From a virus (lineage: Duplodnaviria > Caudoviricetes), in IMG/VR virus record IMGVR_UViG_3300036805_000175, positions 12,654-76,653 of that record: a stretch of DNA of 64,000 nt; one strand, given 5' to 3'. The notes below the pieces were generated by a model, which saw only the letters and a program-made list of their open reading frames with translations, made no database searches and was not told the DNA's origin. Positions 2,315 through 52,926 of this stretch are shown here, one piece after another. Positions within the stretch are counted from its first letter, which is position 1, and every line of letters begins with the position of its first letter. A program made the translations under genes and the position numbers.

Positions 2315-4002
2315 CGGTCACCACCCCGGCCCGGTCGCTGGTCACTGGGGAGCAGCGGCCCCGGCTGTTCTCCTGCCCGGCCTACGCCACGTCGGCGGGC
2401 GCGGACGTGATCGAGTTGGCCGGCAAGGCGGGCCTGTTCCTGGACGACTGGCAGCGGTGGTTCCTCACCCAGGCGCAGGGCGAGCGGGACCCGGACGGCA
2501 AGTGGGCCGCGTTCGCGGTGGCGCTGATCTGCTCGCGGCAGAACGGCAAGGACGTGATCCTGGAGGCGCGGCAGCTCGCCGGGCTGTTCGCGTTCGGTGA
2601 GACGCTGATCATCCACACCGCGCATGAGTTCCGCACCGCACAGGAGGCGTTCCTGCGGATCCTGCAGCTGATCGAGGGCTACCCGGACCTTGACCAGGAG
2701 GTCGCGAAGGCCCCGGCCAGCCACGGCGAAGAGGGCATCATCCTCAAGCCGACCCCGACGGTCATCACGGGCGCGGGCGGGCACCAGATCACCCGGTCGC
2801 GGACGGCGCGGCTGCGGTTCCTGGCCCGGCACAAGGGCGCCGGCCGCGGGTTCACCGGGGACCTGGTGATCTACAACGAGGCGATGTACCTGGACTCCGG
2901 CCCGGTGGCGGCGTCGCTGCCGACGATGGCGACGCGGATGAGCCAGACCGACGGCGGCCCGCAGGTGTGGTACACGGGCAGTGCCGGGGTGGGCGCGGCG
3001 AGCCAGCAGCTGGCGCGGGTGCGGGAACGCGGCATCGCCGGCGGCACGTCGCTGTGTTTCGCCGAGTGGTCCATCGAGCTGTGCGACGAGGCGTGCCCGC
3101 CGCGCTGCGGCGCGCACGACGACCCGGGCACCGAGCAGGCCGCGGCGAAGGCGAATCCCGGCTACAACCTGCCCGGCCGGTACGACCCGGAGATGGTCCA
3201 GCGGTTCCGTGACGAGATGGACGAGCCCACGTTCCTGCGGGAGATCCTGGGCGTGGGCACCTACCCGGTGCCCGCCGAGGGCTGGGCGGTCATCCCAAAG
3301 ACCTGGTGGGCTTCCACGATGGCGGGTGATGACCAGCGGGCCGCCCGGCCGGTGTTCGCGATCGACACCACGCCGGACCGGGCGTACACGTCGGTGGCGG
3401 CGTGCGGCACGCCCGGCGGCACGGATAAGCCGCGGATCGAGCTGTGTGACCACCGGGCCGGGCAGCGGTGGGCCGCCGCCTATGCCGCCAGCCTGGACGA
3501 GCGGCGCGGCCCCGGCGTGTGGATCGTGGACAAGGGTGCCGCCGCGGGGACGCTGATCGGCGCGCTGGAGGACGCCGGGCTGCGGGTGGAGTGCCCGACG
3601 GCGACCGATGTGGCGCACGCCTGCGGGCGGCTGTATGACGCGCTGCGCGACCGCGAGATCGACCACGCCTGCGACCGGGAGGTGCAGACCGGGCTGGCCG
3701 GGCTGGCGCAGCGGCGGCTCGGCGCCGGGTTCGCCTGGGACCAGCGCGCCGCCGTGGTGGACATCTCCGGCGTGTACGCGTACACGTTCGCGTTCTGGGG
3801 CTGGGAGAAGTTCGGCGGCCAGCCCGCGGACTATGACACCGGCGAGTCGGTCGGGTTCGGCCCGGCGCAGATCATCAGCCTGTTCACCTCCGGCACCTAC
3901 GGGGCCGAGCAGATGCGGCGGATGCGCGGCCGCGGCCTGATCACCGACGACATGCTGGCCGGGCTCGCCGCCGCGGGCGTGCACGTGCCGGCGGGCATCT
4001 GA
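2311..4002 (+). CDS. terL: Terminase large subunit
   Basis: Walker A SRQNGK; HTAHEF; GRGFTGDLVIYNEA; nuclease-domain AIDTTPDR and VVDIS. Confidence 0.95.
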   Translation: MTVTTPARSLVTGEQRPRLFSCPAYATSAGADVIELAGKAGLFLDDWQRWFLTQAQGERDPDGKWAAFAVALICSRQNGKDVILEARQLAGLFAFGETLIIHTAHEFRTAQEAFLRILQLIEGYPDLDQEVAKAPASHGEEGIILKPTPTVITGAGGHQITRSRTARLRFLARHKGAGRGFTGDLVIYNEAMYLDSGPVAASLPTMATRMSQTDGGPQVWYTGSAGVGAASQQLARVRERGIAGGTSLCFAEWSIELCDEACPPRCGAHDDPGTEQAAAKANPGYNLPGRYDPEMVQRFRDEMDEPTFLREILGVGTYPVPAEGWAVIPKTWWASTMAGDDQRAARPVFAIDTTPDRAYTSVAACGTPGGTDKPRIELCDHRAGQRWAAAYAASLDERRGPGVWIVDKGAAAGTLIGALEDAGLRVECPTATDVAHACGRLYDALRDREIDHACDREVQTGLAGLAQRRLGAGFAWDQRAAVVDISGVYAYTFAFWGWEKFGGQPADYDTGESVGFGPAQIISLFTSGTYGAEQMRRMRGRGLITDDMLAGLAAAGVHVPAGI

Positions 4003-12411: not shown

Positions 12412-12876
12412 ATGAGCGACCACATCTACGAGGGCGCCTGGACCTACACCTCCGGTGCCGCCGCGCACGCCATCGGTGAGATCATCCCGGCGTCGCTGGC
12501 CACCGGGAAGCGGCCCCCGGAGATCCGCGAGATCGGGGTCTTCAACCAGTCCGGCGTGGGTGCCCAGATTGGCCTCGGCCGCCCGGCAGCGATCGGTGTG
12601 ACGCCGGGCACGCAGACCACCGTGCAGGCCGGGAACAGCATCGACACTATCGCTGGCAACACGGTCATCGCCGCCTCGTGGGGCACCGCACCCACAACCC
12701 CGACGACGTTCATGCGCCGGGCCGACCTGCAGGCCGTGGCGGGCGCGGGCGTGATCTGGACGTGGCTGCCGGGTGAGTTCGTGCTGTGGTCGGGCGCGTC
12801 CATCAGCACGCTCGTCCTCTGGCAGCTATCCACGCTGGCGGTAACTTTCGACCTCTACTGCAAGGTAGCGGAGTGA
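12412..12876 (+). CDS. Putative virion structural protein
   Basis: Beta-rich; lies in the structural operon. Confidence 0.6.
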   Translation: MSDHIYEGAWTYTSGAAAHAIGEIIPASLATGKRPPEIREIGVFNQSGVGAQIGLGRPAAIGVTPGTQTTVQAGNSIDTIAGNTVIAASWGTAPTTPTTFMRRADLQAVAGAGVIWTWLPGEFVLWSGASISTLVLWQLSTLAVTFDLYCKVAE

Positions 12877-45976: not shown

Positions 45977-46392
45977 GGCTTCGCTCCCGTCGCTGAGGCC
46001 CGTGCCCGCGCCTCCAGGAACCGGCACGCAGCCGCGCACCCGTTCACCCCGGCTACTGCGGCAGCCAGAGCGGCGGCATCCGCGGGGTGCCGGAGCGCAA
46101 TCCGGCCCTGGAGGCCCTGAAGGTCGGTGAGGAGTGCTGAGGCCCGGGATGCGAGAGTGCCGAGCTTGTCGGCTAGCGGGGACGGGGTGACGCTCATGCC
46201 ACGCTCCTTCGGGTCATGGCGCTGCAAGCTGCCCGTGCTGGCACGGAGCCGCCGCTCGTACCGCTCCGCCGTCCGCCGGCTCAGGCCCATCCGGGCCGCC
46301 GCCCGCTCAGGCGTCTCCCCGAAGTCACGGGTCAGTTCCCGGTAGTCCTCCAGCCGGGCCAGCGTCCGCGCCAGCGTGCCCATGCACGTCAC
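45973..46392 (-). CDS. HTH protein, with a probable internal start at 46197
   Basis: ERAAARMGLSRRTAERY HTH; AAGGAG before ATG 46197. Confidence 0.5.
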   Translation of the reverse strand: MTCMGTLARTLARLEDYRELTRDFGETPERAAARMGLSRRTAERYERRLRASTGSLQRHDPKERGMSVTPSPLADKLGTLASRASALLTDLQGLQGRIALRHPADAAALAAAVAGVNGCAAACRFLEARARASATGAKP

Positions 46393-46727
46393 CGTTCCGC
46401 CCTCCTCGCCTCGAGCATCGCCTCGAGCCCGGCCCGCGCGGCCCGGTACTCCTCGTTCGGCGGGACACCGCAGCGAGGGACACCCAGCGCCGTCACATGC
46501 CCGGCACGGTCGTCCCGGACACGCCCCAGGATGCCGGCCGGCGTCACCCGGACCGGGGTGCAGCGGTAGTGCTCGAACACCGCGGCCATGGCCTCGTCCA
46601 GGCTCAGGTTCGGCACCCACGGGTTACCCAGGCTGTCCGCCCACGTGGCCAGGGACGCCTCCGGGTCCAGCGTCTCGTCCCAGCTGCGGGCGAACTCCAG
46701 CAGTTCGCGCACCTCGGCCTCGGTCAC
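46389..46727 (-). CDS. G39P-like helicase loader/inhibitor
   Basis: LATWADSL..LDEAMAAVFEHY..TPAGI; lies in the replication module. Confidence 0.5.
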   Translation of the reverse strand: MTEAEVRELLEFARSWDETLDPEASLATWADSLGNPWVPNLSLDEAMAAVFEHYRCTPVRVTPAGILGRVRDDRAGHVTALGVPRCGVPPNEEYRAARAGLEAMLEARRAER

Positions 46728-46951
46728 GCGACATCGCCTCCGAACATGGCAGGCTGGATCGGTTTGTCCAGGCGCTTGCGGATCAGCTCGGCGTAGGCCG
46801 GGTCCTTCTCGATCAGCAGGCAGCGGAAGCCCTCCACGATGCACGCCTCGGCCGTCGTGCCGCTGCCCGCGAACGGGTCCAGGACAAGACCATCCGGCGG
46901 CGTGATGAGCCGCACCAGCCACGCCATGAGGTCGACAGGCTTGACGGTCAA
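46724..46951 (-). CDS. N6/N4 DNA methyltransferase C-terminal fragment (SAM-binding motif I)
   Basis: TTG start; TVKPVDLMAWLVRLITPPDGLVLDPFAGSGTT..IEKD. Confidence 0.8.
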   Translation of the reverse strand: MTVKPVDLMAWLVRLITPPDGLVLDPFAGSGTTAEACIVEGFRCLLIEKDPAYAELIRKRLDKPIQPAMFGGDVA

Positions 46952-47046
46952 GTCGGATGGGCAATGTGCCCACCCGTCTCCGGCATCACCTCCTCGAAGT
47001 AGGCGTGCAGGTGCGCGGGGACTTGTTCGGGGCGCAGGTCACGCAT
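46948..47046 (-). CDS. 32-aa methyltransferase middle fragment ending HPT
   Basis: MRDLRPEQVPAHLHAYFEEVMPETGGHIAHPT*; its TGA overlaps the TTG of the next fragment; not in the ORF track. Confidence 0.45.
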   Translation of the reverse strand: MRDLRPEQVPAHLHAYFEEVMPETGGHIAHPT

Positions 47047-47092
47047 AACTCATCACCGCGATTGGCTTAATGATCCTTGATAGGCTGGGCGA

Positions 47093-47848
47093 ATGGCGAA
47101 GGGACAGCTTGGCTACAAGATCCGTACGATCCGCTGCGCTGGCTGCCCGGCCGTAGTGACTGGGCACTTCCCACCCGGCCAGCGCTACTGCTCGGCCGCC
47201 TGCTACTGGGCGGCTGACCGCCCGAAACGGCGGACTGGGCAGACGCTCAACTGCGGGCAGTGTGGCCACCCGTTCTACGTCCCGCGCGGCCGGGCCGGCA
47301 CGGCGCGGTTCTGCTCGGCCGCCTGCCAGATTGCGTGGCAGGGACGCAACAAGACGGAGCACATCTGCAAGGTTTGCGGTGCGGCGTTCCACTGGTCGCC
47401 AAGTCGCAGCGGCGGCGGCAAGTACAACATCACGTACTGCTCGCTGTCCTGCCGCGATGCCGACCCCGAGCGCACGGCCATGCTCCGCGAGATGAATGCA
47501 GTTCAGCAGACACGCCGCACCACGAATGCCGAGCGCATCGGCTACGGGCTGTTGTCCGCGCTCGGTATCGCCCATGAGCCACAGGCCATGTTCGCCGGGA
47601 AGTTCTGCGTCGACGCGCTGCTGCCCAGTTATCGCGCCGTGGTGCAGTTTGACGGCGACTACTGGCACGACCGCAAGGGCACTAGCGCTGAGCCGAGGAT
47701 CAGGCACAGAGTGGCGCTCGACGGTTCCCAGGACGCTTACATGCGCGCCTGCGGCTGGACTGTCCTGCGGCTCTGGGAATCCGACCTCAAGGGCGAGCCG
47801 GCCATGTGCGCGGAGAAGATTAGGCAGCATCTACGCCTGCCTTCCTGA
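47093..47848 (+). CDS. Vsr/DUF559-like endonuclease with N-terminal Zn-finger repeats (homing-endonuclease-like)
   Basis: YCSAAC/FCSAAC/YCSLSC repeats; VDALL..VVQFDGDYWH..QDAYMRACGWTVLRLWESD; leaderless TAGGCT at 47081-86. Confidence 0.85.
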   Translation: MAKGQLGYKIRTIRCAGCPAVVTGHFPPGQRYCSAACYWAADRPKRRTGQTLNCGQCGHPFYVPRGRAGTARFCSAACQIAWQGRNKTEHICKVCGAAFHWSPSRSGGGKYNITYCSLSCRDADPERTAMLREMNAVQQTRRTTNAERIGYGLLSALGIAHEPQAMFAGKFCVDALLPSYRAVVQFDGDYWHDRKGTSAEPRIRHRVALDGSQDAYMRACGWTVLRLWESDLKGEPAMCAEKIRQHLRLPS

Positions 47849-49031
47849 GTTCCGCCATCACGTAGGCGCGCTCATCCTCGGTCAGGTCGGCACGCAGCCG
47901 CAGGACGGTGTTCTTGATCCGCGGCCGCTCGGCACTGCCGGCCTTGGGCTCGTAGCGGAACACGGGGAAGAACCGGGACGCGCCGCCTGAGTCGGCATAC
48001 ATGCTGCCCGGTGTGCCGGCCCCGGGGAAACTGGTCGCTCTAGGATTGCCGTTTGGCCCGTGATCTACGGCGCTGTAGACGCCGCTGCTCTTGAGCTTCC
48101 CGCTCTGCCGGTCCAGTTCCTCTGCGGCTTCTGGGCCGAGCAGGACGTTCGGCGGCCAGCGGCCCATGCCGTCATGAGGCGCAGGCTGCACGGCCCCGGC
48201 CCCATCCGTGCCGCCTGCAAGACGGCCAGCCGCATATGTCCTCGTCCCCGCCGCCCGCTTGTCCTGCGGGGAACCCACCCGGCACCCGCCTACGTTCACC
48301 GCCCCCGTGCCGTGCTCCACCACGTTCGCGGCAACGGTCCCCCGGAGTGGCTTACGGGCGAGCCACCACATCTCGTGGCCCGGCTTGAGCGCGGTTCCCC
48401 AGCCGTCCCAGCGGGCGGCGTTCTCAGTAGCGGGAGCGGTCACGGGAATCTCGCCCGGCAGGCCAAGACGGTCACCGTAGACCTCTGGTGAGGCGTTCGG
48501 TCGGGCACGGGCACCTCGCGTCCCGTCTGGGAACTGCGGGCGTGTGCCGACTACCTCTCGCGCAGCACCGGCCGCCCTGTCGATGGCCTTGGACACGTCC
48601 AGCGACTTCGGGAAGCCCGAGCCGAACAGGTGCGTCACGCAGTCGCGGATCTCCAGCCCGGCGTCCTCGATCGCCCAGGCCGTCCAGTGCGAGGTGCGCG
48701 GGATGGACCAGACCAGAGCGTGCGCGCCGGGCTTCATCACGCGCATCGCCTCGGCCAGGACGGCGGTCAGCCACTCCACGAAAGCCCCGCGCTCGCCGTG
48801 CCCGTACTCCGGGCCACGGGCAGACGTGTGGCCGGACACGTCACCACGGCCCACGTCGGCAGGGTTGCGGGCCCGGCGGAAGTCATCCCACTCGCGGCCC
48901 ATGAACGCAATTCCCGCTGGAGGGTCGGTGACTACCGCGTCGACGCTGGCAGCCTCCAGGGTGGGCAGCACAGTGAGGCAGTCCCCGAGGTGCAGCGTCA
49001 CCCGGTCGTCCGCCCAGTATGCCTCGGTCAT
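47820..49031 (-). CDS. N6/N4 DNA methyltransferase N-terminal fragment (catalytic motif IV + TRD)
   Basis: GDCL..SVDAVVTDPPAG; GSGFPKS; GWGTALKP; GRWPPNV; ASRFF..YEPKA; no FxGxG motif. Confidence 0.85.
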   Translation of the reverse strand: MTEAYWADDRVTLHLGDCLTVLPTLEAASVDAVVTDPPAGIAFMGREWDDFRRARNPADVGRGDVSGHTSARGPEYGHGERGAFVEWLTAVLAEAMRVMKPGAHALVWSIPRTSHWTAWAIEDAGLEIRDCVTHLFGSGFPKSLDVSKAIDRAAGAAREVVGTRPQFPDGTRGARARPNASPEVYGDRLGLPGEIPVTAPATENAARWDGWGTALKPGHEMWWLARKPLRGTVAANVVEHGTGAVNVGGCRVGSPQDKRAAGTRTYAAGRLAGGTDGAGAVQPAPHDGMGRWPPNVLLGPEAAEELDRQSGKLKSSGVYSAVDHGPNGNPRATSFPGAGTPGSMYADSGGASRFFPVFRYEPKAGSAERPRIKNTVLRLRADLTEDERAYVMAELRKAGVDAA

Positions 49032-49702
49032 GCCGCGCTCCCGTACCGCCGGTCGCTGCCCTTGAGCACGACGCGCGTGGTCATCTCCGTGAGCCGGGAC
49101 GCCACCCGCTCCCCCAGCGCGCCGGCCAGGTCACGCGGCGGGATGTTCGAGGTGAACAGGGTCGGCAGCGCGTGCTCGTAGCGGTGGTTCACCAGCCGGT
49201 AGTTGACCTCCTCCACCCATTCGCTGCTCTTGGCCGCGCCCAGGTCGTCCAGCACCAGCAGGCCAGCGCCGCCGACCGCGGCGAACTCGGCCTCGGAGTC
49301 GACGCCGTGCCGTGGCCGCATCCGCGCGTACAGGTCGGCGGCCGGGATGGCCACCCACCGGGAGCGGATGCCGCACGCGGCCAGCCCGCGGATGACGCCG
49401 TACGCCTCATGCGTTTTGCCCGTCCCCGTGGGCCCGAGCAGCAGCAGCGAGGGACCGCCGTCGACGGAGGCGACCACGCGCCGCCGGGCCAGGGCGTGCC
49501 GCACCAGCACGGCCACCCACGTGCGCACACCCTCGTCGGTGGCCAGGGCCGTGGCGTAGCGGGCCGGGATGCGCGACATGGCCTGGCTGAACGCCTCGGC
49601 GGCACCGTAGTCGCCGTCGTCGGCGGCCAGGGACGCGGAGTCGATGCCGCTGCCGGCCAGGAACTCCTCGCGCCATGCGGCGAGGTCGCTGGGAAGGTTC
49701 AC
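49028..49702 (-). CDS. DnaC/IstB-like ATPase (helicase loader)
   Basis: GPTGTGKT; LLVLDDLGA; NHRY..PTLFTSN; RVASRL. Confidence 0.9.
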   Translation of the reverse strand: MNLPSDLAAWREEFLAGSGIDSASLAADDGDYGAAEAFSQAMSRIPARYATALATDEGVRTWVAVLVRHALARRRVVASVDGGPSLLLLGPTGTGKTHEAYGVIRGLAACGIRSRWVAIPAADLYARMRPRHGVDSEAEFAAVGGAGLLVLDDLGAAKSSEWVEEVNYRLVNHRYEHALPTLFTSNIPPRDLAGALGERVASRLTEMTTRVVLKGSDRRYGSAA

Positions 49703-50577
49703 CGGGGACGCAACTCCTCGTTGTAGACGGACGGGTCGGCGGGGTTGCGGAAGGTCTGGTGACCCTGCTCGCTGGTCCCGCCACCACCGTTGGTTATGCC
49801 GTTGACGAAGCTCGCCAGCGTGGACGGATGCTTGGCCGCGATACGCCACTGCTCAAGGCCGGCCCGGATGTCGTCCGTTTCCTGGCCCTCGTCGAGCAGC
49901 TTCTTGAGCTCTGCGGATATCTGGCCGATCACCCGGTCGGGTGGGCGCTTGCGGCAGGCGCGAATCCATTCAGCGACGAGCGTTCCGGCTGTCGCCGTTG
50001 TGGCTTGCTCGGTCCGCGCTGCCTGCGCCGGCGTAGCCGGAACGGGTTTGGGTTCGGGTATGGGCGCTATCTCGTTAGAGATAGCCCGGTGCGCCGGCGC
50101 GCGCGAGCCATCACTTGCCATCGGCTTGCCAGCAACGTCATGGCTACCCTTTGGCAAGTTGTCAGGATTGGATGGCAAATTGCTATCGGGCTTTGACTCC
50201 GGGCCATCCGCGTCACGCTTGGCCCACCGCGCCTGAGCACCGCGCCGGCCTGCTTGCGCCCGTGCCTCACGCGTCTTCGGCGTCGGCAGGTACTGGTCGA
50301 AGTCGTGGATCAGCCACCCGTCGCCCTCGTCGCGGGATTCCCAGAGTTCTTCCTTGACGAGCAGCGCGGCGAGCTCGCGCGCACCCGGCCCGAGGTAGCG
50401 CCGCGGCAGGTGCGCGGGAAGCAGGCCCGGCGTCTTGCCTTTGCGGAGCGTGTTGCGGTGCGCCCAGGTCAGGCAGAGAGTCCATAGGCCGATAGCGGCA
50501 CCGCCCTGCTCGTGGTCGAGCAAGGCGAGCACCTTGGGGTGGTCGTCGAACGCATCGTCAATGCGCGCCCACGCCAT
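49699..50577 (-). CDS. Replication initiator (replisome organiser)
   Basis: MAWARIDDAFDDHPKV..GLW..GWLIHDFDQY N-terminal wHTH; directly upstream of the DnaC-like gene. Confidence 0.8.
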   Translation of the reverse strand: MAWARIDDAFDDHPKVLALLDHEQGGAAIGLWTLCLTWAHRNTLRKGKTPGLLPAHLPRRYLGPGARELAALLVKEELWESRDEGDGWLIHDFDQYLPTPKTREARAQAGRRGAQARWAKRDADGPESKPDSNLPSNPDNLPKGSHDVAGKPMASDGSRAPAHRAISNEIAPIPEPKPVPATPAQAARTEQATTATAGTLVAEWIRACRKRPPDRVIGQISAELKKLLDEGQETDDIRAGLEQWRIAAKHPSTLASFVNGITNGGGGTSEQGHQTFRNPADPSVYNEELRPR

Positions 50578-51154: not shown

Positions 51155-52810
51155 TCACGCGGCGACCTCCGTCCGCACACGGTCAAGCAGCAACGACAGG
51201 GCCAGGGCCGCCTGGGCCGGGACCACCCCGTTGCCGAGAGCCTTGAGCTGGGCGTTGCGGGACAGGCCGGGCACGTCCGTGACCCAGCCCGCAGGCAGGC
51301 CCATTAGCCACTCGACGAACGCCGGGCTCAGCCGCTGCCCAGTTCGTCCAGGCTCAGTTGGCCGGGGTGCTGGGCATCCGGTGACAGCTTCCCAGCGGCC
51401 GATGGCTGGCCCGTAAGCGCGCCAATCAAGGTCGGACTGCCCGAGGGCATCGTTACGCTCATCCGGTCCCCGTCCGCCGCCATGGGAGTCGGCAGGAGCA
51501 CTTCCCCCTGCGGTCTGCCCTCGTCGGTCCGCTCGGCACCCAGCGAGTACATCGTCTCCGTCCCCGATGCGCCGCGCGCTGCCCGTGGTGTCGGCAGCAG
51601 CACCTGCGACAGCGGCGGCCGGAATCCCTCGCTCGCCCTGCGGCCCGGTGTCCCTGTGTCGGATGCCCTCGGAGTGGGCAAGAGCGGAGGCCCGGACCTC
51701 GGCTGGGTCGGTGCCGTCCTCGAAGCTGTTCCACGGGCCGTCAGGGCGTCCGAGTTCGGGGTCGGCGCAGTTTCCGCCGCATGGCCCGGCGCAGAATCCC
51801 CCGGCGTCGTGGGCATAGTCGGGGCATCCGCAGGATGGGCACCGGGACTCGCCGGGCCCGATGCTCCAAGGCTCATGACCGCGCTCGGCAGCATCAGGTC
51901 CCCCGAACTCCCCCGCTGGTTCGGTCCGCCCTTCGTGCCGTCCGTCGCCCGGGGCGTCGGCAGGAGCTCGCACTCCACCTGGTCGGCCAGCGTCGGCCCG
52001 TGGCCACCCTCCCGGCGCTTGTCCGGGTGCTGGCTGCCGCCGTTCACCGCCAGCTGCGCGGTCGGGGTCTTGAGCAGGTGCGCCGTGACGGTCGCCAGGT
52101 TGCGCGCCCGCTTCGTGCCAGACGGCCGCTGGCCGCCGTCGTGCTCCTCGGGTGACGCGCCCCCGCCCTTCGCCTGTGGCCGTGGCGTCGGCAGCAGGCC
52201 AGGCGAGGATGAAGATGCGCTTGCGCTGATGGGGAGCACCGGCATCGGATGCGCGCACGCAGAGCCAAGTCCCCACGTACCCGATTGCGGCCAGGTCAGC
52301 GGTGACTCCGGCAAGTCCTCGAACAACGAGGGCAGCCACGTTCTCCAGGAAGACGAGGCCCGGTCGAAGCGAGCGAACGGCACGCACGACCTCCGGCCAG
52401 AGCCATCGTTCATCTGCTTCTCCTAGTCGCTTGCCCGCGAGGGATATCGGCTGGCACGGGAACCCGGCCGTCAGGATGTCCACGGGCTCTGCCGCAGCCC
52501 AGTCCGTCTCGCTGATGTCCCCGAGGTTCTTAGCGGCGGGGAAGCGGTGCGCGAGGATGGCCGCCGCCCCCGGGTCGTTGTCCGCGACCCAGGCGAGCTT
52601 GCCGCCGAGCACCTGATGCACGGCCATCCCCAGGCCCTCGTAGCCAGAGCACAGGCTGCCGATGCGGAGCTGGCTGCCACCGGCCGGGGCACCTTCCCCG
52701 GGTATCCCGGCCGGCGCAGTCTGGTCCCGCAGCGGCAGGGGGGGCGGCGCCGCTGCGGGAGTCTGGCCGGGAGCAGCGAGCGCGGTCTCTGCTCCCGGAG
52801 TCACGGTGTC
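51155..52810 (-). CDS. dcm: C5 cytosine DNA methyltransferase
   Basis: LCSGYEG, GDI, AGFPCQ, ENV, PHQRKRIF, LSPAFVEWLMGLP, LGNGVVP. Confidence 0.92.
   Translation of the reverse strand, partial: DTVTPGAETALAAPGQTPAAAPPPLPLRDQTAPAGIPGEGAPAGGSQLRIGSLCSGYEGLGMAVHQVLGGKLAWVADNDPGAAAILAHRFPAAKNLGDISETDWAAAEPVDILTAGFPCQPISLAGKRLGEADERWLWPEVVRAVRSLRPGLVFLENVAALVVRGLAGVTADLAAIGYVGTWLCVRASDAGAPHQRKRIFILAWPAADATATGEGRGRVTRGARRRPAAVWHEAGAQPGDRHGAPAQDPDRAAGGERRQPAPGQAPGGWPRADAGRPGGVRAPADAPGDGRHEGRTEPAGEFGGPDAAERGHEPWSIGPGESRCPSCGCPDYAHDAGGFCAGPCGGNCADPELGRPDGPWNSFEDGTDPAEVRASALAHSEGIRHRDTGPQGERGIPAAAVAGAAADTTGSARRIGDGDDVLAGCRADRRGQTAGGSAPADSHGGGRGPDERNDALGQSDLDWRAYGPAIGRWEAVTGCPAPRPTEPGRTGQRLSPAFVEWLMGLPAGWVTDVPGLSRNAQLKALGNGVVPAQAALALSLLLDRVRTEVAA
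51328..52413 (-). CDS. Overlapping alternative-frame protein with LLPTP repeats
   Basis: AGGAGAAG RBS before ATG 52413; FDRASSSWRT..LFEDL..TWPQSG; six LL[P/K]TP units. Confidence 0.6.
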   Translation of the reverse strand: MNDGSGRRSCVPFARFDRASSSWRTWLPSLFEDLPESPLTWPQSGTWGLGSACAHPMPVLPISASASSSSPGLLPTPRPQAKGGGASPEEHDGGQRPSGTKRARNLATVTAHLLKTPTAQLAVNGGSQHPDKRREGGHGPTLADQVECELLPTPRATDGTKGGPNQRGSSGDLMLPSAVMSLGASGPASPGAHPADAPTMPTTPGDSAPGHAAETAPTPNSDALTARGTASRTAPTQPRSGPPLLPTPRASDTGTPGRRASEGFRPPLSQVLLPTPRAARGASGTETMYSLGAERTDEGRPQGEVLLPTPMAADGDRMSVTMPSGSPTLIGALTGQPSAAGKLSPDAQHPGQLSLDELGSG

Positions 52811-52926
52811 CATGGCGTCTCCCACGGGCTGGCCGCACGTTCCCGCAGGACCGTGAGGTGTCTCCGGTGCCACAGGAGCGCGTGCAGGGTGGCAAGAGCG
52901 GCAGCGAGGAGCAGGGCAGTCTTCAC
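52801..52926 (-). CDS. Small TM peptide
   Basis: AGGAGAG RBS; hydrophobic N-terminus. Confidence 0.45.
   Translation of the reverse strand: MKTALLLAAALATLHALLWHRRHLTVLRERAASPWETPWTP

Follow-up and report, generated by a model that had tools for sequence, protein, structure and literature searches.

Can a phage DNA methyltransferase (MTase) gene that has been broken into three pieces around an endonuclease gene of the opposite strand still provide a working enzyme, and how did it come to be broken? The question is raised by a locus at 46724-49031 of a 64,000-nt stretch of viral DNA (Duplodnaviria; Caudoviricetes; IMG/VR record IMGVR_UViG_3300036805_000175, positions 12,654 to 76,653), hereafter the window, which belongs to a viral contig of 76.6 kb (completeness about 80%). 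We regard this locus, with a probability of roughly 0.7, as an MTase in the state called genes-in-pieces, produced by a homing endonuclease in the manner of NrdA and mobE of phage Aeh1; the pieces would then assemble in trans into an active enzyme, and the endonuclease would cleave uninterrupted alleles.

The MTase is a beta-class N6/N4 enzyme (PF01555), and it is encoded not as a single polypeptide but by three minus-strand open reading frames (ORFs) in two frames, p1, p2, and p3, exactly at the positions given in a preliminary description of the window. The N piece, p1 (49031-47820, minus strand; 403 aa), contains motif IV, the catalytic core, and the variable or target-recognition domain (TRD) region up to ERPRI, followed by an added tail of 31 aa (residues 373-403, 47823..47915; consensus LR.R.DLT.EE..YV..EL...GV). 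The micro-ORF p2 (47046-46948, minus; 32 aa) joins an acidic leader, MRD..E.P..L..YFEEV, to a native MTase segment, ..GGHIAHPT, and a stop. The C piece, p3 (46951-46724, minus; 75 aa), starts with TTG, reads (M)TVKP, and contains the motif X helix and motif I (DPFAGSGTT), which binds S-adenosylmethionine (SAM). The p3 sequence matches the C-terminal end of the Pfam N6_N4_Mtase profile (E 4.7e-15), and on the PHROG MTase profile phrog_67 the matches of p1 (114-284) and p3 (284-348) adjoin each other. A match of p2 to phrog_7789, a 29-residue PHROG of unknown function, was the first hint of p2-like ORFs in other phages. The order of motif IV, TRD, motif X (HPTxKP), and motif I is retained across the three pieces. 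Catalytic and SAM-binding motifs are kept, as originally claimed, with the qualification that motif IV of p1 is DPPA instead of DPPY; this is not decay, because the closest intact relatives also read DPPA. No second copy of the split MTase was found on the 76.6-kb contig.

Two lesions separate the pieces. Between p1 and p2 lies a free-standing endonuclease gene on the plus strand (47093..47848; 251 aa), encoding three zinc ribbons of the form CxxC...CSxxC and a C-terminal nuclease domain of Vsr fold; its 3' end and that of p1 overlap by 29 nt. The divergent control region (47047..47092, both strands) includes a −10-like TAGGCT on the plus strand (47081-47086) and, on the minus strand, GGTGATGAG 5' of the p2 ATG. 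The second lesion (46937..46959, minus) is located within motif X, where the HPT codons (46951-46959) are separated from the VKP codons (46937-46945) by the spacer TGACC (46946-46950). The junction reads CAT CCG ACT tgacc GTC AAG CCT; the spacer holds the p2 stop, with which the TTG start of p3 (46949-46951) overlaps as TTGA, in agreement with the 5-nt interruption first noted there. At the outer ends, the p1 ATG overlaps the stop of an upstream DnaC-like gene (ATGA), and the p3 stop overlaps the GTG start of the following ORF (GTGA); the pieces are therefore within a tightly packed operon. The upstream gene (49028-49849, minus) encodes a DnaC/IstB-like helicase loader by its Pfam and PHROG matches.

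The same layout was found in 12 diverged alleles, with p1 identity as low as 27%, always in the order of MTase N piece plus tail, antisense endonuclease, small ORF ending in HPT and a stop, and C piece starting near VKP. Its carriers include mycobacteriophages of at least two groups (Malithi, Fishburne, and Donovan; Seagreen), a Rarobacter genome, a Chloroflexi metagenome-assembled genome, and several IMG/VR contigs; a 13th leader ORF was detected on a short contig of a candidate phyla radiation bin. The host gene is broken in each, while order, strand, and locus of its parts are kept and the endonuclease gene lies between the ORFs. Since both interruptions are found again in 12 alleles from independent assemblies, finished phage genomes among them, chance and assembly error are alike excluded; the suspicion that the 5-nt insertion might be such an error is thus removed, and the split is conserved in relatives. 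The MTase pieces also persist where the endonuclease gene is lost. In phage Jebeks the flanks are identical to those of Malithi, and the one difference is a clean deletion of 705 nt that removes the endonuclease gene; all three MTase ORFs are retained. In the phage collection, 84 records carry p2 and p3 versus 17 with the full endonuclease, both counts including RefSeq/GenBank duplicates. Apart from the split, p1 of the alleles L016, L017, and L019 (minus strand) contains an in-frame insert of about 1 kb after about residue 138, giving p1 ORFs of 688-788 aa. This insert is probably the intein reported for the methylase family (Gosselin et al. 2023, PMC9957025), in which case some alleles hold both an intein and the endonuclease cassette.

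The insertion point was to be defined from uninterrupted homologues, and these place the break between ERP and HPTxKP, as intact alleles read through ...ERP-(6 to 11 aa)-H(P/N)TVKPLDLMRW. Neither the p1 tail nor the p2 leader is present in intact homologues. Comparison between the intact allele of Majeke and the split allele of Jebeks gave the boundaries: identity is 97-100% over most of the 900 nt 5' of the break (the final 180 nt ahead of ERPS among them), apart from a divergent patch about 200-400 nt upstream of the break, and identity of 85-95% resumes from CC GTC AAR, that is, from VKP onward. In place of roughly 39 nt of the intact gene, Jebeks has the cassette: first the tail with its stop, next the site of the deleted endonuclease gene and the control region, then the leader with a diverged copy of ..VAHPT, and last a stop with spacer. 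Each split allele carries two lesions, a large insert after ERPxx and a stop-bearing insert of 5-8 nt between HPT and VKP. When mapped on the structural model of the closest intact relative, the two breaks are located in a non-helical connector of 13 residues ahead of the motif X helix.

The codon in the middle of HPT varies among intact relatives with a recognisable motif (HPT in 42, HET in 12, and about 10 others), whereas HPT is retained in p2 of all split alleles. This variation is compatible with escape of the target site, for which it gives only a hint. The intact alleles nearest to the split ones are L037 (Majeke gp63), L038 (Wee gp78), and P0005; in these nearest alleles HNT, or HET in the relatives of the window allele, replaces HPT right at the junction codon. 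Another close intact allele, gp18 of prophiGD51-1, has the HPT form. In Wee gp78, about 150 aa are in addition inserted behind motif IV; they may represent the LAGLIDADG domain described in PMC9957025.

How p3 is translated bears on the possibility, raised at the outset, of recoding, by which a frameshift or a hop over the stop would join p2 to p3 and give a two-piece enzyme. The window sequence ACT-tg-ACC could indeed be a Thr-to-Thr hop restoring HPTVKP, with a Thr codon before GTC also in L006 and L017, and a stop directly after HPT resembles known take-off or shift sites. The stop was located directly 3' of HPT in the split alleles (12 examined) except L018, in which p2 (L018:2849-2953, minus) continues through HPTLKP to its stop and holds T_TTA_AAG, a −1 slippery heptamer of classical type, in register for the p3 frame. 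Such a signal was seen in L018 alone, and no common slippery or stimulatory element was seen among the alleles. The would-be landing site is GCC, not a Thr codon, in 8 of the 12 alleles, and the shift needed to reach p3 from p2 is +1 in seven distinct alleles, −1 in three, and 0 in one. Because the frame of p3 thus differs between alleles, recoding is improbable, and the suggestion finds no support.

An ordinary start codon is instead available to p3 at or before VKP in 12 of 12 split alleles. It is TTG within a TTGA overlap in the window allele and L022, ATG immediately after TGA in L005, and GTG coinciding with the V codon of VKP in L018 and L019. In the remaining alleles the start is a GTG 30-33 nt upstream, behind GAGGAGG (GAGGAGG-N6-GTG), and this GAGGAGG is the coding sequence of FEEV in p2, so that in many alleles the FEEV codons double as a Shine-Dalgarno (SD) sequence for p3.

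Selection on the pieces was then estimated from nonsynonymous and synonymous differences. Pairwise dN/dS (Nei-Gojobori method, NG86) ranged from 0.2 to 0.5 in the tail, from 0.12 to 0.45 in p2, and from 0.02 to 0.6 in p3. As these segments are short, the ratio of proportions, pN/pS, in the annotated frame was compared with that in the two shifted frames of the same nucleotides. For the leader, pN/pS was 0.35 in the annotated frame against 1.24 and 1.64 in the shifted frames; for the tail, 0.52 against 1.42 and 1.47; and for the first 35 codons of p3 from VKP, 0.23 against 1.91 and 2.14. The low in-frame ratios indicate that the insert-derived peptides are translated and constrained, and that VKP is within the translated p3. 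Judged by codon substitution, tail, leader, and C piece are under purifying selection, in the annotated frames only.

A pseudogene is rejected on dN/dS together with the shifted-frame control, contrary to the simple pseudogenisation that the preliminary description had kept as its alternative, and the relaxed selection in relatives that would have spoken for decay was not observed (pN/pS 0.23-0.52 in frame). A dead relic, in which the cassette killed the MTase and its pieces persist through short time or hitch-hiking, could be argued from the frameshift in p1 of L018 and from the frequent gain and loss of orphan MTases in phages (PMC9957025). Against it, the low in-frame pN/pS, as opposed to values above 1.2 in the shifted frames, holds for alleles whose synonymous divergence is saturated; down to 27% identity the alleles retain their ORFs, start codons, and catalytic motifs; and the pieces outlast the loss of the endonuclease gene. 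We therefore give this explanation little credence.

Tail and leader also differ in charge: the acidic leader carries −2 to −6 and the basic start of the tail (its first ten residues) +1 to +3; both signs are reversed in L022. These charges fit electrostatic pairing of tail and leader, on the basis of one swap. That the two peptides are selected as translated sequences bears in turn on the proposal of splicing, whether by a degenerate group I intron or by tail and leader acting as a split intein to join the pieces. Genes for Vsr-like endonucleases have been described both in group I introns and between the split-intein halves of 'fractured genes' of phages (PMC2677866). The Rfam search over 46000-49500 gave no family even at E<=1, although strongly degenerate elements may escape such a search. 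At 31 aa and 20 aa, tail and leader fall short of the length of intein halves; neither the tail nor p2 matched Pfam, and terminal Cys/Ser or HN plus Cys/Ser/Thr residues were absent from tail and leader. Furthermore, two lesions would require two splicing events, and the endonuclease gene is antisense. As Rfam gave no match and tail and leader are selected as protein, splicing of any kind is hardly to be expected here, and the earlier proposal is left without support.

To see whether the split state was inherited or acquired, it was placed on the tree of the MTase N core. The tail was present in 14 of the 120 best database matches to p1, and about 105 were intact; the closest relatives of the window p1 are intact MTases (56-65% identity), the C-termini of which resemble p3. 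The split state requires at least 10 changes on the tree, and at least 7 in a 34-row subset. When split alleles of this subset were forced into one clade, the log-likelihood (lnL) decreased by 522 and the approximately unbiased (AU) test gave p-AU 3e-47, rejecting a single ancient invasion followed by vertical descent. From this scatter of split alleles among the intact ones it follows that the cassette is mobile or was so in the past.

Homologues of the endonuclease gene were found in various contexts. In L008, L020, L021, L026, and L028 they face the 3' end of an intact MTase gene in convergent orientation, with a short overlap in some; in L014, L030, and L032 they are located between unrelated conserved genes with no MTase nearby. 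Varied contexts together with scattered split alleles form the pattern expected of a selfish mobile gene. In the latter three loci (about 2900-3700) the neighbours are ORFs of about 700 aa and 400 aa resembling, by eye from their N-terminal sequences, a prkA/yeaH-type pair. In two further loci (L007:2563-3681 and L027:2971-3834), the N-terminal part of an MTase (..GDC.E.M..) continues, just short of motif IV, directly into the antisense strand of an endonuclease homologue. No remainder of the MTase turned up in the flanks; these loci may represent a second insertion site near DPPY of motif IV. L027 also has, about 1 kb from its endonuclease homologue, a second small ORF (1602-1889, minus) with DUF559/Vsr-like motifs by eye (..VEVDG-like.., GWRVLRY).

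The nature of the endonuclease agrees with the original view of an opposite-strand zinc-finger and Vsr/DUF559 enzyme. The motifs QFDGDYWH, VDA, and R.WE and an upstream Glu are invariant in 23 of 23 homologues; the EDxHD signature is not present, the invariant motif being QFDGDYWH. Similarity to E. coli Vsr (1cw0) was detected with the single sequence (E 0.005) and with the 23-homologue profile (E 6e-7), and weaker matches were to a DUF559-like protein and to I-Bth0305I (3r3p, profile E 0.037). The AlphaFold model (pLDDT 91) gave Vsr 1cw0 as the top Foldseek match (E 3e-5), followed by the catalytic domain of I-Bth0305I (3r3p; E 1e-4, TM 0.79 on the target). Thus Foldseek and profile both assign a Vsr-type catalytic fold. 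The protein is nevertheless not a Vsr of very-short-patch repair, as it has 251 aa and three zinc ribbons versus a single domain of about 150 aa, and it scores below the curated cut-offs (TIGR00632, 29 bits vs 97.85; Pfam Vsr, 19 vs 27). By these comparisons it is best described as a separate branch of Vsr/DUF559-like nucleases.

The nearness to Vsr leaves room for a nuclease that is a working partner of an MTase, either restriction-like with the N6/N4 MTase or, as had been suggested, as a nickase of T:G mismatches for a nearby C5 MTase. Its catalytic domain is nearest to Vsr, its homologues stand convergent to intact MTases in the five loci listed above, and a C5 MTase gene is found at a distance of 3.3 kb in the window and at no more than 3 kb in L008, L021, and Seagreen. 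The C5 cytosine MTase of the window (51155-52873, minus; 572 aa), 3.3 kb upstream, has N and C halves separated by a long low-complexity insert (Pfam and PHROG matches). Most loci are without a C5 MTase within 3 kb; since only three other loci have one, T:G repair in its service is unlikely, and the suggestion found no support. For the partner role in general, homologues between unrelated genes have no MTase near, the triple zinc-ribbon DNA-binding module is not found in Vsr, the TIGR00632 score is far below its cut-off, and the gene is dispensable, being deleted in Jebeks-type phages while the MTase pieces stay. Its location inside the gene of the supposed partner is also hard to account for. 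We consider such a partnership unlikely in either form.

The endonuclease gene of the window has TAGGCT 6 nt 5' of its ATG, without SD sequence. A TAnnnT box, likewise without SD, precedes this ATG by 6-7 nt in every actinobacterial allele, and the low-GC allele L022 shows TTGACA-17-TATAAT-6-ATG. Because the box recurs without SD across alleles, the leaderless, self-promoted design is conserved, and a leaderless promoter is plausible from this spacing. A scan of 46600-49200 for strict sigma-70 promoters and terminators found zero sites; the leaderless promoter of the preliminary description is based instead on the conserved −10 box.

The comparative evidence (the scattered tree, a difference between close alleles confined to the cassette, and purifying selection) fits the invasion by a homing endonuclease first proposed for this locus. 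From it we infer the following course. A mobile cassette, centred on a free-standing gene for a Vsr-fold endonuclease, antisense and with its own leaderless promoter, has entered the beta-class MTase gene of a phage in the short connector between the catalytic/TRD and SAM-binding parts, from ERP to HPTxKP. It gives the upstream piece a tail of about 30 aa and a stop, and the next piece a ribosome-binding site (RBS), a start codon, and an acidic leader of about 20 aa. The second small lesion that always accompanies the cassette adds a stop and a spacer of 5-8 nt after HPT, with a new start of the last piece at or just before VKP. The N piece, the micro-protein p2, and p3 most likely reassemble non-covalently into an active methyltransferase, and tail and leader probably aid this assembly, as in NrdA-a/NrdA-b of Aeh1. 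The endonuclease most likely cuts uninterrupted alleles near the site coding for HPT/VKP, so that recombinational repair spreads the cassette; the spacer would then shield carrier alleles from cleavage.

Several points weigh against this course. A subunit of 32 aa that provides three residues of a conserved motif is unusual. The stop after HPT is kept in every lineage, even in L005, where one base change would fuse p2 and p3 in frame, and a frameshift disrupts p1 of L018. Conservation of the endonuclease between alleles exceeds that of the MTase pieces only moderately, so that no recent homing event is directly visible, and the scattered distribution could come partly from recombination within the MTase gene. 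Three loci (L020, L021, and L028) have the endonuclease beside an intact MTase that still carries HP(T/A/C).KP; this motif alone is thus not the whole target. A literature search for methylation, assembly, or cleavage in phages with split alleles gave nothing relevant.

It is tentatively possible that the cassette is a portable module for gene splitting, which would bring its own promoter, basic and acidic tags for assembly, an RBS and restart signals, and a spacer that destroys the target, with p2 as a third subunit giving HPT of motif X. If so, the locus would represent a natural three-part split enzyme, in which the split is neutralised by the invader itself.

The split layout, which occurs in distant metagenomic viruses as well as in dozens of sequenced actinophages, has apparently been unreported so far. 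To our knowledge, genes-in-pieces arising through homing endonucleases are known as a handful of single cases, chiefly NrdA of Aeh1 and the topoisomerase of T4. New here are the MTase as host, the antisense and leaderless endonuclease, the three pieces with a micro-ORF in motif X, the constant stop-bearing second lesion, and a large diverged family with derivatives lacking the endonuclease. With dozens of diverged alleles, some of them lacking the endonuclease gene, and with close intact relatives in culturable phages of M. smegmatis, the family offers a natural series for the rescue of a split enzyme by tails, for a micro-protein carrying part of a catalytic motif, and for homing by a Vsr-fold nuclease. 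For annotation, many actinophage ORFs named 'DNA methylase' are the N piece only, and the two small ORFs downstream belong to the same MTase; this affects pham assignments, structure predictions, and evolutionary analyses of the methylase family, published ones included.

Separate polypeptides that work as a complex are known for MTases. Split enzymes such as M.AquI alpha/beta are broken near the variable region, and the permuted classes of MTase tell that the fold tolerates breaks between sub-domains. Enzymes of the M.AquI type differ from the window locus in being C5 MTases of two pieces with no intervening gene for a mobile endonuclease.

Vsr-like homing endonucleases were predicted from 'fractured genes' of phages, usually together with split inteins (2009, PMC2677866). 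Here as there, a free-standing gene for a Vsr-like endonuclease lies between the halves of a phage gene for DNA metabolism, with order and orientation kept. While most of those genes use split inteins, none is present in the window locus; the SbcD-like fractured locus, also without intein, has short inserted tails of 25 aa and 9 aa flanking the break. MTases are not among the hosts reported in PMC2677866, nor are a second lesion and a micro-ORF described there.

Among characterised enzymes, I-Bth0305I is a Vsr-like homing endonuclease of the EDxHD family (Taylor et al. 2011, PMC3239194; PDB 3r3p), in which the same kind of catalytic fold is used for homing in a phage. Its gene sits inside a group I intron, whereas the endonuclease of the window is free-standing. 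The sequence relation between the two is weak (the profile E of 0.037), QFDGDYWH of the DUF559/Vsr-like type stands here against EDxHD, and the N-terminal module here is a triple zinc ribbon.

The actinophage methylase family, which hosts an intein, a LAGLIDADG domain, and the 'ShiLan' insert, is subject to frequent transfer and within-gene recombination, and a small neighbouring 'methylase' ORF was found there unexplained (Gosselin et al. 2023, PMC9957025). The split, the Vsr-like gene, and a frameshift are not mentioned in that study, which treats the same protein family as the window MTase (Willsammy, KilKor, CactusJack, and others).

The closest parallel is nrdA-a/mobE/nrdA-b of Aeromonas phage Aeh1, genes-in-pieces reportedly described by Friedrich in 2007. 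The tails of Aeh1 NrdA derived from the insert are essential for activity and oppositely charged (Crona et al. 2011, PMC3045599). The host gene is ribonucleotide reductase in Aeh1 and a DNA methyltransferase here; the nuclease is of the HNH type there, and here of Vsr fold with an antisense and leaderless gene. Three pieces including a 32-aa micro-ORF are found here, and many diverged lineages, known from sequence alone, stand against one phage. Common to both systems are extra C- or N-terminal tails brought to the fragments by the insert, with oppositely charged tails in Aeh1 and an acidic leader and basic start of the tail here, and an endonuclease family that is located between genes in related phages and inside the gene in the phage concerned.

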